Shown: positions 1-4,139, counted from the first letter of the stretch. The stretch is 27,973 nucleotides of DNA from a virus (IMGVR_UViG_2531839664_000024); one strand, 5' to 3'. Notes: generated by a model from the sequence alone, not told the origin. Program-made: numbers and translations.

Positions 1-1164
1 TTACGCCTTCTTTATATCCTCCATAATTCCAGAGTGGGACATATTTGGGACATTATCACCAAAAATGTCGTCTATTTTCCTCGCATGCTCTGTCAAATGA
101 TTAGGCGCAAGGTGAGCATACCTACGAACCATTTCTATGGACTCCCATCCGCCCATTTCCTGAAGCACTGATAATGGGACGCCTGACTGAATCAGCCAGC
201 TTGCCCAGGTGTGTCTGAGGTCATGGAAACGGAAATATTCAATTCCTGCACGACGACAAGCTGATAGCCATGATGTCTTGCTGTCGATGCGCATCTTCCT
301 GACCGCAGGCGTTGATGTTCCATCTGCTCGCTTAGCCGCCTTGGTATGTACAAACACCCATTTGTGATGCTTGCCTATTTGATCACGCAACACTTTACAG
401 GCGGTATCGTTCAGCGCCACACCAATGGCGCGGTTTGATTTGCTCTCTTCTGGATTCACCCAGGCAACTCGTCGCTGCATGTCGATTTGTTGCCATTCCA
501 GATTTATGATGTTCGACTTTCTCAGACCAGTTGCCAGCGCAAACTTGACGACAGATTTCAGTGGTTCGGGGCACTCATCAATAAGGCGTTTTGCTTCCTC
601 CTTTTCCAGCCATCTGACTCGCTTGTTTCTGACCGCTGGTATCTTGATGACAGGCGCTTTTTCCAGCCACTTCCAGTCGCGTTCTGCAGCACGGAGAATG
701 GCCTTTATCATGGCAAGATGCTTTGCCTTTGTCTGAGTTGATACTGGCTTTGGTTCATAAACAGGCAGTTCTTTACCTTTCCTGATGGCGGCCTGAACTT
801 TCTGTTTCCATATTTCTTTCGTCTTTCTGTTATGCATTCTGCTTACAGCAGAGTAAATCTTTGCCTCCGAGATATCTTTAAGCCTTATACCCTCAAAATG
901 TTCAAGCCAGAACTCAATCCGGCTTTTATCTGAATCGAGAGATTTTTTATCAGCTTTTTCCTCAAGCCATCTTAGGCAGGCCTCTTCAAAAGTGACATCA
1001 GGTAAATCCCCTAGCTTTTCTACTCGCCAGAGTTCTGCTTTTCGCTTGTCGTGCAACTCCTGAGCTTGCCGCTTGTCCTTTGTGCCAAGAGATTCCTTAA
1101 TTCGTTTCCCGCCCGGGAGCGAATACGAGGCATACCATATTTCATTTCTGCGGAAGAGTGACAT
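1..1164 (-). CDS. int: Phage integrase, tyrosine recombinase (387 aa); C-terminal HxxR...Y catalytic region ([10 protein letters not shown]...RRYAH)
   Basis: Full-length ORF from ATG at 1164 to stop at 1-3; N-terminus MSLFRR..WYASY and C-terminal motifs typical of lambdoid (Rac/e14-type) integrases as I recall them. Confidence 0.9.
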
Positions 1165-1391
1165 TTTCTTTCCTCTGTTATGCCATCACCCGCGCTCACT
1201 TGGACAGTATGCAGCGGAGACTGAAGCGCCGCAATGCAGGCTTGCCGTGTTGTGAGGTAAGGAGATTTTGGCTTGGTTGGATCTTTACGTGTTGCCTGTA
1301 GGCGGCCTGTTCGTATCCAGTTGGTGGCGGTTGGTCTGGATATCTTAAGAAACTGACAGGCCTCATCGAGTGTGAGGCTGTATGATTCCAT
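1020..1391 (-). CDS. xis: Excisionase-like small DNA-binding protein, 3' end overlapping int start
   Basis: ORF starting [29 protein letters not shown] (HTH-like) with AGAGGT Shine-Dalgarno 5 nt upstream of ATG at 1391; position immediately upstream of int. The 145-nt overlap with int is unusually long, so the functional C-terminus is uncertain. Confidence 0.6.
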
Positions 1392-1641
1392 GGTTACCTC
1401 TGCTTTTTGAACGCATGTCACGTAACTTCTTAATGTGTTCTGCCGTTTCGATCTCTTCTGCTATCCGATCTGCATCAGCTTTATTCACAGGTTCAAAGTC
1501 ATGATTAAAGCGGAACATGCTGGCGATACATGTTCTGCCTTTTCGGATGTAGTGAACTTTGTTGTGGGTAGAACGCAGGATTTTGCAGGGAGTGCCGTGG
1601 TGGTCGACGTACCAGGTGTTAGGAAAAATGATTCTGAACAT
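1363..1641 (-). CDS. Hypothetical small prophage protein (92 aa)
   Basis: ORF with GAGGTG Shine-Dalgarno 5 nt upstream of ATG at 1641; same orientation as int/xis; no function recognised. Confidence 0.5.
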   Translation of the reverse strand: MFRIIFPNTWYVDHHGTPCKILRSTHNKVHYIRKGRTCIASMFRFNHDFEPVNKADADRIAEEIETAEHIKKLRDMRSKSRGNHGIIQPHTR

Positions 1642-1688
1642 TTTTACACCTCAGTTGGACGATGTTGAAATTTGCTGCTTTGAGGCCA

Positions 1689-1907
1689 TCACAGTCCCCA
1701 TTGTTTGTTCTTAAGTTCGATCTCCTCCTGGCAACTTGCACAAGTCCGACAACCCTGAACAGCCAGGCGTCTTCGCTCATCTATCGGATCGCCACACTCA
1801 CAACAATGAGTTGCGGATACAGTCTGGTAGTTCAGACGACGCATTTTTATTGCTGTATTGCGCTGTAATTCTTCGATTTCTGATGCTGAATCAATGATGT
1901 CTGCCAT
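1689..1907 (-). CDS. TraR/DksA-family C4-type zinc-finger protein (72 aa)
   Basis: Motif CxxCGxxIxxRRxxxxxGxxxCxxCQ (CECGDPIDERRRLAVQGCRTCASCQ) characteristic of the phage/plasmid TraR-DksA zinc-finger family. Confidence 0.7.
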   Translation of the reverse strand: MADIIDSASEIEELQRNTAIKMRRLNYQTVSATHCCECGDPIDERRRLAVQGCRTCASCQEEIELKNKQWGL

Positions 1908-1960
1908 CTTTCATTAATCCCTGAATTGTTGGTTAATACGCTTGAGGGTAAATGCGAATA

Positions 1961-1985
1961 ATAAAAAAGGAGCCTGTAGCTCCCT
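1961..1985 (-). terminator. Putative Rho-independent terminator on minus strand (stem GGAGC/GCTCC, then T6 on the transcribed strand)
   Basis: Plus-strand sequence aaaaaaGGAGCctgtaGCTCC at 1963-1983; sits right after the stop of ORF 2006..2287. Confidence 0.5.
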
Positions 1986-2005
1986 GATGATTTTGCTTTT
2001 CATGT

Positions 2006-2287
2006 TCACCGTTCCTTAAAGACGCCGTTCAACATGCCGATCGCCAGGCTTAAATGAGTCGGTGTGAATCCCATCAGCGTTACCGTTTCGCGGTGCTTCT
2101 TTAGTACGCTACGGCAAATGTCATCGACGTTTTTATCCGGAAAATGCTGTCTGGCTTTTTTGATTTCAGAATTAGCCTGACGGGCAATGCTGCGAAGGGC
2201 GTTTTCTTGCTGAGGTGTCATTGAACAAGCCCCATGTCGGCAAGCATAAGCACACAGAATATGAAGCCCGCTGCCAGAAAAATGCAT
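2006..2287 (-). CDS. Hypothetical protein; start uncertain (ATG at 2287 abuts the IS end, internal ATG at 2221), possibly 5'-truncated by the IS/deletion
   Basis: ORF followed by a terminator-like hairpin; reading frame stays open into the IS left end, so the native N-terminus may be lost. Confidence 0.4.
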   Translation of the reverse strand: MHFSGSGLHILCAYACRHGACSMTPQQENALRSIARQANSEIKKARQHFPDKNVDDICRSVLKKHRETVTLMGFTPTHLSLAIGMLNGVFKER

Positions 2288-2343
2288 TCTGAACCGCCCC
2301 GGGAATCCTGGAGACTAAACTCCCTGAGAAAGAGGTAAACAGG

Positions 2344-2670
2344 ATGACTAAAAATACACGTTTTTCCCCTGAGGTCCGTCAACGGGCAGTTCGTATGGTT
2401 CTGGAAAGTCAGGGCGAATATGACTCACAATGGGCGGCAATTTGTTCCATTGCCCCAAAGATTGGCTGTACACCAGAGACTCTGCGTGTGTGGGTTCGTC
2501 AGCATGAGCGGGATACCGGGGGCGGTGATGGTGGACTCACCACCGCTGAACGTCAGCGTCTGAAAGAGCTGGAACGTGAAAATCGTGAACTGCGCCGCAG
2601 TAACGATATCCTTCGCCAGGCTTCCGCTTATTTTGCGAAGGCGGAGTTCGACCGCCTCTGGAAAAAATAA
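2344..2670 (+). CDS. IS3-family transposase OrfA (HTH/leucine-zipper part)
   Basis: 108-aa [22 protein letters not shown]...; stop TAA overlaps the orfB ATG (ATAATG). Confidence 0.9.
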
Positions 2671-3557
2671 TGCCACTGCTGGATAAGCTGCGTGAGCAGT
2701 ACGGGGTCGGACCGGTATGCAGTGAGCTGCATATTGCCCCGTCAACGTATTACCACTGTCAGCAACAGCGACATCATCCTGATAAACGCAGTGCCCGTGC
2801 TCAGCGCGATGACTGGCTGAAGAGAGAGATACAGCGCGTATACGATGAAAATCATCAGGTGTACGGTGTGCGTAAAGTCTGGCGCCAGTTGTTACGCGAA
2901 GGTATCAGGGTGGCCAGATGTACAGTGGCGCGCCTCATGGCGGTTATGGGACTTGCCGGTGTTCTCCGGGGTAAAAAGGTCCGTACTACCGTCAGCCGGA
3001 AAGCCGTTTCCGCAGGCGACCGCGTAAACCGTCAGTTCGTGGCAGAACGTCCTGACCAGCTGTGGGTGGCTGATTTTACTTACGTCAGCACATGGCAGGG
3101 CTTCGTCTATGTGGCGTTCATCATTGATGTGTTTGCCGGATGTATCGTGGGGTGGCGAGTCTCATCGTCTATGGAAACGACATTCGTGCTGGATGCACTG
3201 GAGCAGGCGTTGTGGGCCCGTCGGCCGTCCGGCACAGTCCATCACAGTGATAAAGGTTCTCAGTATGTATCACTGGCCTATACGGAGCGACTAAAAGAAG
3301 CAAAACTGCTGGCATCAACAGGGAGTACAGGTGACTCGTATGACAACGCGATGGCGGAGAGCATCAATGGTCTTTACAAAGCGGAGGTAATACACCGTAA
3401 GAGCTGGAAAAACCGTGCAGAAGTGGAACTGGCCACACTCACGTGGGTGGACTGGTATAACAATCGACGATTGCTGGGAAGGCTGGGTCATATCCCTCCG
3501 GCAGAAGCAGAAAAAGCTTATTATGCTTCCATCAGAAACGATGATCTGGCAGCCTGA
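2670..3557 (+). CDS. IS3-family transposase OrfB (DDE catalytic domain), in -1 frame relative to OrfA
   Basis: 295-aa ORF with DDE-transposase hallmarks (WVADFTY...HSDKGSQY...DNAMAES); A6 run just before the orfA stop. Confidence 0.9.
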   Translation: MPLLDKLREQYGVGPVCSELHIAPSTYYHCQQQRHHPDKRSARAQRDDWLKREIQRVYDENHQVYGVRKVWRQLLREGIRVARCTVARLMAVMGLAGVLRGKKVRTTVSRKAVSAGDRVNRQFVAERPDQLWVADFTYVSTWQGFVYVAFIIDVFAGCIVGWRVSSSMETTFVLDALEQALWARRPSGTVHHSDKGSQYVSLAYTERLKEAKLLASTGSTGDSYDNAMAESINGLYKAEVIHRKSWKNRAEVELATLTWVDWYNNRRLLGRLGHIPPAEAEKAYYASIRNDDLAA

Positions 3558-3599
3558 GTTCACAGATAAAACACTCTCCAGGAAAACCGGGGCGGTTCA

Positions 3600-4113
3600 G
3601 TCAACAAAAAGCAGCTGGCTGACATTTTCGGTGCGAGTATCCGTACCATTCAGAACTGGCAGGAACAGGGAATGCCCGTTCTGCGAGGCGGTGGCAAGGG
3701 TAATGAGGTGCTTTATGACTCTGCCGCCGTTATAAGATGGTATGCCGAAAGGGATGCTGAAATTGAGAACGAAAAGCTGCGCCGGGAAGTTGAAGAACTG
3801 CGGCAGGCCAGCGAGACAGATCTCCAGCCAGGGACTATTGAGTACGAACGCCATCGACTTACGCGTGCGCAGGCTGACGCCCAGGAGCTGAAGAATGCCA
3901 GAGACTCCGCAGAAGTGGTGGAAACCGCATTCTGTACTTTCGTGCTGTCACGGATCGCAGGTGAAATTGCCAGTATTCTTGACGGGATCCCTCTCTCGGT
4001 ACAGCGGCGTTTTCCGGAACTGGAAAACCGACATGTTGATTTCCTGAAACGGGATATCATCAAAGCCATGAACAAAGCAGCCGCGCTGGATGAACTGATA
4101 CCGGGGTTGCTGA

Positions 4114-4139
<26 letters not shown>
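3600..4139 (+). pseudogene. nu1: Terminase small subunit Nu1, 5'-truncated: reading frame begins at codon 3 (VNKKQLADIFGAS...) directly at the IS right end; no start codon, no cos
   Basis: Translation from 3600 matches lambda Nu1 from residue 3 onward as I recall it; the first in-frame start (ATG at 3672) is internal. Confidence 0.85.

Follow-up and report, generated by a model that had tools for sequence, protein, structure and literature searches.

Does a prophage that keeps its integrase, its excisionase, and some 20 head and tail genes represent a phage in decay or a structural module retained for a particle- or tail-derived function of its host? The question is raised by the window analyzed here, a stretch of 27,973 bp that O121 chromosomes match at 100%. 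The locus adjoins tRNA-Arg and lies between fimZ on its left side and ompT/envY on its right; tRNA-Arg argU and attL lie directly left of the window, and the prophage continues right of it to attR, past ompT. A 47-bp att repeat (L001 positions 9764-9810 and 42112-42158) bounds a 32,395-bp element, and both copies are still present, one at each prophage end.

The intD-type tyrosine integrase beside tRNA-Arg argU and the duplication of the att core at the ends are those of the DLP12/argU-integrating family. The family's gene order is also found, namely, Nu1-A-W-B-C-D-E-FI-FII-Z-U-V-G-T-H-M-L-K-I-J-lom-stf-tfa, based on collinear tblastn matches of all PhiR26_1 structural proteins and on PGAP products. 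[quoted passage not shown] An argU prophage is common to the O121:H19 lineages, and the prophages of lineage L1 are highly conserved (PMC8767318). Functional DLP12-type phages, including PhiR26_1 (PV340555.1; 48.2 kb) and its relatives PhiR29_1, ev099, 2H10, and mEp332, share the int/xis/att arrangement and the gene order. PhiR26_1-type phages show 97-99% nucleotide identity to the window over all kept segments and 90-100% identity in the structural proteins. The left end of the window, up to the first packaging gene, contains the following features.

1-1164, minus strand: intD-type tyrosine integrase, intact, 387 aa (Pfam Phage_integrase, 1.2e-45; PGAP intD, beside tRNA-Arg)
1020-1391, minus strand: excisionase (xis), apparently intact, overlapping the int start (phrog_2907, 5.9e-46; Pfam HTH_17)
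1363-1641, minus strand: DUF4222 small ORF (Pfam DUF4222, 7.8e-18; phrog_285; identical to PhiR26_1)
1689-1907, minus strand: TraR/DksA-type zinc-finger protein (Pfam zf-dskA_traR; phrog_54; 94% identity with PhiR26_1 TraR)
2006-2221, minus strand: orf61-like hypothetical protein (phrog_303, 1.7e-35; 97% identity with PhiR26_1 orf61)
2290-3599, plus strand: IS629/IS1203-type element of the IS3 family, 1,310 bp (inverted repeats TGAACCGCCCCGG... at both ends; HTH_Tnp_1, HTH_21, and rve domains)
3600-4139, plus strand: Nu1 (nohD) terminase small subunit without codons 1-2, start codon, and RBS (Pfam Phage_Nu1, junction sequence)

The integrase, described as intact in the original prediction, is indeed full length and shows 99.7% identity to the integrase of the functional phage PhiR26_1 over 387 aa. 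The excisionase matches phrog_2907 over its full length (profile positions 2-117 of 117), and its translation is the same as that of PhiR26_1, so the PGAP label of pseudogene is doubtful. Between xis and the packaging genes lie exactly the three small ORFs (DUF4222, TraR/DksA, and orf61) and the single IS629/IS1203-type element that had been proposed, with orf61 as the last early-left gene kept.

The IS is annotated by PGAP as IS3 family with a programmed frameshift and shares 95-95.5% identity with copies annotated as IS1203. Its length of approximately 1.31 kb, inverted repeats starting with TGAACCGCCCCGG, orfA/orfB programmed frameshift, and DDE (rve) transposase are those of the IS629/IS1203 group. 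However, its flanks read TTC on the left and GTC on the right, without the 3-bp target-site duplication (TSD) of a simple insertion. A missing TSD is expected after an adjacent deletion or inter-IS recombination subsequent to insertion, if either occurred. Alignment to PhiR26_1 is collinear in three segments, in which window positions 1-2289, 3599-22236, and 23495-27973 correspond to phage positions 18-2306, 20728-39363, and 39361-43841, respectively. Compared to the functional phage, 18,421 bp of prophage are missing between window position 2289 (phage 2306) and window position 3599/3600 (phage 20728), with one 1,310-bp IS in their place. The missing interval comprises orf63, exo/bet/gam, cI/cro/cII, O/P, the nin region, Q, S/R/Rz, bor, and cosN, up to the first 5 nt of Nu1. 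One IS copy without a TSD is the signature of an IS-mediated deletion. The IS was not named as the cause of the gene loss in the earlier reading.

The same target is used in related prophages. In O157:H7 strain NE 1169-1, IS1203 sits at the identical nucleotide as an undeleted simple insertion (TSD TTC/TTC), with orf63-exo-bet to its right, and strain UTME-9 carries an IS 33 bp from the O121 site with a different, shorter deletion. The spacer upstream of orf61 is thus a repeated IS target. No intermediate genome was found, carrying either the IS at this site of an undeleted argU prophage or a pair of IS copies, so that more than one deletion mechanism fits, and the exact gene content of the ancestor is deduced from its relatives. 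In the proposed scheme, an IS629/IS1203-type element would have entered the intergenic spacer upstream of orf61, and a deletion anchored at its right end would then have taken out 18.4 kb, reaching the second codon of Nu1. Either intramolecular transposition or recombination with another IS629 copy, lying at Nu1 in direct orientation, could account for the deletion. In a single step, the recombination genes, immunity region, replication genes, nin region, Q and pR', lysis cassette, bor, cosN/cosB, and the Nu1 start would have been lost, followed by smaller lesions, namely, an IS in J and a 1-bp deletion in stf. We infer both the order of these events and the exact route of the deletion. Kusumoto et al. 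2011 (ref. 60 of PMC8767318) are said to have described genomic deletions by IS629 and the IS3 family in enterohemorrhagic E. coli (EHEC), including deletions promoted by the IS-excision enhancer IEE. The O121 prophage resembles such cases in its single IS629-type copy at the deletion point and its lack of a TSD. Typical IEE events remove the IS itself, whereas it is kept here. In O121:H19 lineage L3, the iee gene is located on SpLE1-like elements, and elements of this type occur in lineage L1 as well (PMC8767318). The sequence fits an origin of the deletion through IEE, through intramolecular transposition, or through homologous recombination of two IS copies.

Searches for the lost functions gave a consistent picture. 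A six-frame Pfam scan of positions 1-4300 yielded only integrase, HTH_17, DUF4222, TraR zinc finger, IS3 transposase domains, and Phage_Nu1, with no repressor, Cro, N/Q, O/P, holin, endolysin, or Rz, and no credible Pfam match came from the 114 ORFs of 50 aa or more that lack annotation in 4140-27973. None of 31 early and lysis proteins of PhiR26_1 matched the window by tblastn (E ≤ 1e-3). The lambda cosN 12-mer is absent from the window, whereas PhiR26_1 has one copy, inside the missing interval. In the part of the prophage right of the window, up to attR, no regulatory or lysis genes were found. These profile, tblastn, and cosN searches bear out the original prediction that CI/Cro, N/Q, O/P, S/R/Rz, and cos are lacking, and that the element would be unable to replicate, lyse its host, or be packaged via cos. 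Judged by gene content, the remnant is non-inducible, without replication, lysis, or packaging. A crude promoter scan detected no sigma-70-like promoter between the IS and the terminase and late genes, although it also misses the IS's own promoter. Together with the loss of pR'/Q, this suggests that the late operon is transcriptionally silent, although read-through or IS-derived transcription may occur. What remains would be a promoterless late operon, int/xis, and both att sites.

The head, packaging, and tail genes upstream of J, identified by tblastn with PhiR26_1 proteins and by PGAP, are as follows.

4114-6039, plus strand: A
6036-6248, plus strand: W
6245-7846, plus strand: B
7827-9146, plus strand: C/Nu3
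9156-9488, plus strand: D
9543-10568, plus strand: E (PGAP 341 aa, intact)
10610-11005, plus strand: FI
11017-11370, plus strand: FII
11382-11960, plus strand: Z
11957-12352, plus strand: U
12360-13100, plus strand: V
13116-13538, plus strand: G
13520-13954, plus strand: T
13947-16508, plus strand: H
16505-16834, plus strand: M
16834-17532, plus strand: L
17538-18281, plus strand: K
18278-18850, plus strand: I

The head and packaging genes (4114-11370) are full length, with complete tblastn coverage at 90-99% identity to the PhiR26_1 proteins, except that the alignment of E begins at residue 4 of the longer, 350-aa PhiR26_1 annotation. The tail genes Z to I (11382-18850) are equally complete (92-99.5% identity). 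Including Lom and Tfa, this amounts to 20 full-length structural proteins at 90-100% identity by tblastn. The right end of the window is more heavily damaged.

18911-22252, plus strand: J (central tail fiber/host specificity), truncated (tblastn; phrog_31 central tail fiber J; PGAP "missing C-terminus")
22237-23494, plus strand: second IS3-family element, 1,258 bp (inverted repeats, TSD, transposase PHROGs)
23495-23585, plus strand: detached last 29 codons of J (tblastn, J aa 1109-1137 at 23496-23582)
23655-24254, plus strand: Lom outer membrane protein, intact (phrog_108, 4.7e-110, full length; 97% identity with PhiR26_1 Lom)
24319-27389, plus strand: side tail fiber stf, pseudogene (1-bp deletion after 24824; PGAP "frameshifted")
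27389-27973, plus strand: tail fiber assembly protein tfa, intact (100% identity over 194 aa with PhiR26_1 Tfa)

J is cut at codon 1109 of 1137, with aa 1-1109 at 18911-22237, and its frame enters the IS for five codons. This second IS, which shares 92-93% identity with elements that PGAP names ISEc31, is a simple insertion with a 3-bp TSD (TTT). PGAP mislabels the detached end of J as a homoprotocatechuate dioxygenase fragment. The stf match splits into two frames (aa 2-187 and aa 208-1025). Nu1 is covered from profile position 3 to 164 of 164 by Pfam and over aa 3-180 by tblastn. Its first canonical in-frame start is the ATG at 3672, beyond the N-terminal DNA-binding helix-turn-helix, and PGAP places the start at a CTG at 3615. 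In PhiR26_1, in contrast, the 18.4 kb from orf63 through cos are in place, Nu1 is whole, J (1,137 aa) is free of insertions, and stf (1,025 aa) is read in a single frame; the window has two ISs instead. The proposal of a near-complete morphogenetic module thus holds for the 20 full-length genes but overstates completeness, with the Nu1 start and RBS lost, J cut, and stf frameshifted.

The exact IS-Nu1 junction and the left junction occur together in 9 of 5,426 complete E. coli genomes, all of them O121, and the lesion is therefore clonal and young. [quoted passage not shown] The J insertion is also present in all nine junction-bearing genomes, each in a single collinear alignment, and the stf frameshift is annotated in 3/3 copies inspected. 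The nine copies differ from the window at approximately 2 to 50 positions over 24.4 kb. In the two sister strains examined base by base, the differences are clustered, mostly inside recombination tracts, and the single tract traced to a source matches the dusA prophage of its own genome at 100% identity. Approximately six paralogous copies of the E-U segment are present per genome, and the variation between sister strains is, on this sequence evidence, gene conversion with a paralogous prophage. The clean, IS-flanked single deletion, its restriction to these genomes, and the few differences agree with the recent decay that had been suggested. The reading frames would persist through the youth of the lesion and sequence exchange with paralogous prophages of the same chromosome, not through host use. 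At such an age, intact frames are to be expected even in the absence of selection. Twenty intact frames with intact int/xis/att would also be seen if some activity were kept.

The element has close parallels. Prophage DLP12 of E. coli K-12 occupies the same argU site between fimZ and ompT/envY, is 99.7% identical to window positions 1-1259 in its intD/xisD region, has homologous nohD (window 3599-4421, 95.7%) and tfa (window 27535-27973), and is likewise an IS-ridden defective lambdoid prophage. However, DLP12 keeps the nin region, quuD, essD/rrrD/rzpD, bor, cos, and nohD and has lost the stretch from within A to tfa, whereas the O121 copy keeps A through tfa and has lost the early, late-regulatory, and lysis regions, a reciprocal decay. 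The Sp prophages of O157 Sakai (Asadulghani et al. 2009, PMC2669165) are similarly several mutually similar lambdoids per genome, damaged by ISs, deletions, and frameshifts, and nu1 is disrupted in one of them, Sp4; recombination between Sakai prophages is documented, as gene conversion is seen in O121. In contrast to the O121 element, which is known from sequence and has lost its whole control, replication, and lysis region, many Sakai prophages keep genes for regulation and replication and can still be induced or excised (PMC2669165).

Could the structural module instead have been domesticated, the host keeping head and tail genes for a particle, a tailocin-like device, or a gene transfer agent (GTA)-like device? 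The 20 full-length genes with coupled starts and the same architecture in 9/9 O121 complete genomes would fit. However, the conservation carries no weight because it is confined to one young clone (PMC8767318 for its age), and in so young a lineage open frames are not a sign of selection. The lysis genes, late promoter, Q, and any regulator are gone, Nu1 has no start, an IS cuts J short, stf is frameshifted, and sister strain FWSEC0006 has a further frameshift in Z. The head genes that are kept are needless for a tailocin, the cos site that a lambda-type DNA-packaging particle needs is lost, and the E-U genes have their paralogs elsewhere in the genome. We consider domestication very improbable, and the retention for host use raised in the original prediction is not upheld. 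A tailocin or GTA-like particle was also rejected by its own features, with J and stf broken, no holin, endolysin, spanin, or regulator, and head genes present. A phage satellite (P4-like, PICI, or cf-PICI), which would combine its integrase with a replication and regulatory module of its own and helper-hijacking genes in a small genome, was rejected as well, since only integrase and excisionase are present, without primase, replication, or regulatory genes, and, apart from one deletion, the content follows that of a full lambdoid phage collinearly. An assembly or annotation artifact, in which the early region is present but collapsed at repeated IS copies, has next to no probability. IS629-type elements occupy approximately 20 places per O121 genome and can mislead assemblers, but identical left and right junctions recur in nine independently sequenced complete genomes as single uninterrupted alignments, and 32,395 - 1,310 - 1,258 + 18,421 gives approximately 48.2 kb, the size of PhiR26_1, as fits one deletion and two ISs.

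A more plausible, though still tentative, alternative is that the remnant has its importance as a partner for recombination within the EHEC "defective prophage pool," donating and receiving head and tail alleles with co-resident or superinfecting lambdoid phages, and may still excise via int/xis/att. In two sister strains, the conversion tracts match the dusA prophage of their own genome. Both att copies are present, a functional phage has the same or almost the same int and xis, and inter-prophage recombination and defective-prophage excision were shown in O157 Sakai (PMC2669165). However, the argU prophage is the recipient in the sole traced tract, and donation from it was not observed. Moreover, expression of int/xis is doubtful, as pL has been lost, together with the cII that pI requires for activation. 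Such exchange would be a by-product of homology without selected function, compatible with decay by IS-mediated deletion rather than a replacement for it. It is improbable that the late operon is transcribed by IS629-type read-through or outward transcription and that its 20 head and tail genes, homogenized by conversion, supply lambdoid phages with proteins in trans or with alleles by recombination; if so, the remnant would be a selected "spare-parts" locus and not neutral debris.

The defective argU prophage of O121 belongs to a familiar class, that of lambda-like prophages in ordinary decay, with its induction, replication, lysis, and packaging genes absent or disrupted. Lambdoid prophages of EHEC typically owe their defects to IS insertions, deletions, and frameshifts (PMC2669165). 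Its significance is therefore little beyond bookkeeping: a base-by-base record of how one IS-anchored deletion would make a DLP12-type phage non-inducible in the O121:H19 clone, in a mirror image of the decay of DLP12 in K-12. When a clone is young, intact frames in its prophage remnant are no evidence of domestication. The junctions at 2289/2290 and 3599/3600 can serve as markers of the clone, as can the J::IS insertion. Finally, the tracts common to the argU and dusA prophages provide a small, concrete example of exchange in the EHEC prophage pool, and they are a caution that SNPs of such regions should be masked in outbreak phylogenies.

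The first 4.5 kb of the window and positions 3600-27973 share 99.8-100% identity with nine complete E. coli O121 (O121:H19) chromosomes, with strain RM8352 differing at three bases. In RM8352, the tRNA-Arg gene argU ends 15 bp ahead of the window start, and the neighboring genes are fimZ on the left and ompT, envY, and nfrA on the right. By sequence, K-12 has its DLP12 attachment site at this same location. Comparison of the att sites outside the window, proposed with the original prediction, located a 47-bp direct repeat that spans the argU 3' end and bounds an element of 32,395 bp, which belongs to the DLP12/argU family of lambdoid prophages. 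The stop codons of int and tfa mark the two ends of the window. In the right arm beyond it (methyltransferase, tfa fragment, hydrolase, and ompT), the RM8352 annotation contains no phage control genes.

Escherichia phage PhiR26_1 (PV340555.1, 48.2 kb), deposited in prophage orientation, was the best external reference and has the same integrase and att as the window. It is probably functional, going by its GenBank record, which presents it as a complete phage genome and names K-12 MG1655 as host. An ompT gene and an alpha/beta hydrolase gene lie within the PhiR26_1 genome (45110-47734), and those of O121 (39065-41689 of the fetched O121 region, L001) lie inside the att boundaries, which marks ompT as cargo of this phage family. 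The K-12 DLP12 annotation likewise implies ompT as phage cargo.

The original prediction described an intact int, followed by three small ORFs, an IS629-type element, and about 20 intact structural genes. Pfam and tblastn searches bear this description out. A six-frame Pfam scan of window positions 1-4300 returned only Phage_integrase, HTH_17 (xis), DUF4222, TraR/DksA zinc finger, IS3 transposase domains, and Phage_Nu1, and 114 further unannotated ORFs of at least 50 amino acids in 4140-27973 gave no credible Pfam match (lone hit, CbiZ; E = 0.0014). When 58 PhiR26_1 proteins were searched against the window (tblastn, E ≤ 1e-3), 20 structural proteins aligned over their full length with 90-100% identity, and all 31 proteins from orf63 to the gene before Nu1 were without a match.

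Among the 31 unmatched PhiR26_1 proteins (list not exhaustive)
exo, bet, gam, kil, cI, cro, cII, O, P, ren
PD-lambda-1, Rha, ybcN, ybcO, rusA, ylcG, Q, porin
S, R, Rz, bor, ybcV, ybcW

The lambda cosN 12-mer, GGGCGGCGACCT, does not occur in the window; in PhiR26_1 it is found once (20534-20545), 189 bp before Nu1. The six-frame Pfam and tblastn searches thus found no regulatory or lysis homologues in the window, as had been claimed, and the cosN search found no cos.

The morphogenetic module had been called near complete. This holds for the 20 full-length genes but not for Nu1, J, and stf. What is left of Nu1 starts with codon 3, immediately adjoining the IS (3600); the ATG and ribosome binding site are lost, and positions 3-164 of the 164-position Phage_Nu1 profile are matched. 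The next canonical in-frame start is the ATG at 3672; PGAP falls back on a CTG (3615). A 1,258-bp IS3-family element (22237-23494) interrupts J at codon 1109 of 1137; it has the target duplication TTT on its two sides and is related to what PGAP names ISEc31. The last 29 codons of J lie at 23496-23582. IS3 proper, also 1,258 bp in length, was rejected as the identity of this element, as blastn gave no match to K-12 IS3C. PGAP labels the detached J end (23496-23585) as a fragment of homoprotocatechuate 2,3-dioxygenase, a probable mislabel. In stf, 1 bp is deleted after 24824. The xis gene, in turn, has probably stayed intact, being identical to its PhiR26_1 counterpart and aligning with the phrog_2907 excisionase from end to end, and the PGAP call of an incomplete HTH pseudogene (1326-1391) is likely a mislabel.

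The mechanism behind this state is an IS629-type-anchored deletion of 18.4 kb, probably followed by the IS insertion in J and the stf frameshift. At the nucleotide level, the window aligns with PhiR26_1 in three segments.

Segments of the window and their PhiR26_1 counterparts
1-2289, PhiR26_1 18-2306
3599-22236, PhiR26_1 20728-39363
23495-27973, PhiR26_1 39361-43841

Between the first two segments, a single 1,310-bp IS with IS629/IS1203-type inverted repeats stands in place of 18,421 bp. Its flanks, TTC and GTC, form no target-site duplication. The second IS is a simple insertion and does carry one. IS-anchored deletions classically leave a single copy at the breakpoint that lacks a duplication, and the first IS is read in this way. 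For IS3-family elements, such deletions are known to come about through intramolecular transposition, or else through homologous recombination when two copies lie in direct orientation. The O121 state would thus consist of an IS insertion upstream of orf61 and a rightward deletion, produced by one of these two routes, with Nu1 as the target if it was transposition. The IS in J and the stf frameshift would have come after it.

Related prophages show that this site is struck repeatedly. Strain 1517k carries the same prophage with a complete early region. The pig strain UTME-9 has an IS 33 bp further right than O121 does, and there a different, shorter deletion reaches the nin region. In O157:H7 NE 1169-1, a different lambdoid prophage has IS1203 at the identical nucleotide, as a simple insertion between two copies of TTC and with orf63-orf60a-exo-bet-gam to its right. 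The UTME-9 and NE 1169-1 insertions mark the spacer upstream of orf61 as a recurrent IS629/IS1203 target. Several more genomes have ISs within approximately 100 bp of the 2289/2290 site.

IS locations in related prophages
22323 of L003 (UTME-9 region), IS site
4171-5480 of L007 (O157:H7 NE 1169-1 region), IS1203
3856-5869 and 34520-35733 of L009 (dusA prophage of 2014C-3599), stretches with the ISEc31-related and IS629-type transposases

Junction-specific searches of 5,426 complete genomes found no intermediate on the way to the O121 deletion, whether undeleted or with two IS copies. The matches considered as intermediates were independent insertions, either 33 bp away (UTME-9) or in another prophage (O157:H7). 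Matches at 80% coverage were likewise rejected as the same left junction, with the IS inside int (1517k) or 33 bp further right. In O121:H19, lineage L3 has the iee gene on its SpLE1-like elements, and lineage L1 also carries elements of this type (PMC8767318). IEE may have had a part in the deletion. In the dusA prophage of 2014C-3599, antiterminator Q is split by the same ISEc31-related transposase as in the window (WP_085968792.1), and the window's IS629-type transposase (WP_394295875.1) lies in the tail-fiber region. Both IS types have struck several prophages of the O121 clone.

The original prediction offered recent decay or retention for a host use as readings of the open structural frames. 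The frames themselves do not separate the two. At typical E. coli rates, we infer that 24 kb of neutral DNA would gain a handful of substitutions in a few centuries, so open frames say nothing about selection. The divergence between the window and PhiR26_1 is older than the deletion and stems from phage mosaicism, which makes dN/dS uninformative on selection after it. The exact left and IS-Nu1 junctions occur together in nine of the 5,426 genomes, all O121; in all nine, collinearity with the window extends across the J insertion, and the annotation marks stf as frameshifted in each of the three copies inspected. [quoted passage not shown] The clean IS-anchored deletion, the restriction of its junctions to O121, and the young serotype all favor recent decay.

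A particle or tail-derived device would need a lysis cassette, a regulator, and an intact receptor-binding tip. Neither a lysis cassette nor a regulator was found, and the J tip is broken. Lambda-type late transcription needs pR', qut, and Q in cis, all of which fall within the deleted interval, and a scan of the stretch from the IS to the terminase genes found no sigma-70-like promoter, although such a crude scan is no proof of silence. A domesticated device is thus unsupported. In FWSEC0006, Z carries an extra A at 11804, annotated as a frameshift, and stf carries a 14-bp insertion at 27053; these are either further decay or sequencing errors.

By bit-score estimate, the nine copies differ from the window at about 2 to 50 positions, and in the two strains counted exactly (2014C-3599 and FWSEC0006) most differences are clustered. 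All 47 differences of 2014C-3599 fall inside 10367-12172 (E 3' end through U), a tract 100% identical to the dusA lambdoid prophage of the same chromosome. FWSEC0006 has 29 differences in 6095-6581, where its W allele is the dusA-prophage allele. These tracts are products of gene conversion between paralogous prophages, and a 1.8-kb E-U query finds five to seven matching places per O121 genome. The RM8352 differences (11670, 12023, and 12057) all lie within 390 bp of Z/U, and FWSEC0006 has the RM8352 bases at each. This clustering and sharing suggests another short conversion tract rather than independent mutations. The conversion tracts fit the "defective prophage pool" concept from O157 Sakai (PMC2669165). 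Gene conversion is a by-product of homology and gives no indication of a remnant function.

The observation is thus confirmed, with corrections, and the remnant is an already known kind of object. When assessed for membership, it fell outside tailocins or GTA-like devices and outside phage satellites. Its defects are of the kind routinely cataloged in EHEC prophages. K-12 DLP12, which has only 1-1259, 3599-4421, and 27535-27973 in common with the window, shows the reciprocal decay pattern: it retains nin, Q, lysis, cos, and nohD, whereas A through stf are gone. The deleted interval in PhiR26_1 also includes, at 9690-11192, a defense gene annotated PD-lambda-1 and an OmpD/NmpC-like porin gene. 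If the O121 ancestor had similar cargo, the deletion would have taken that out as well.
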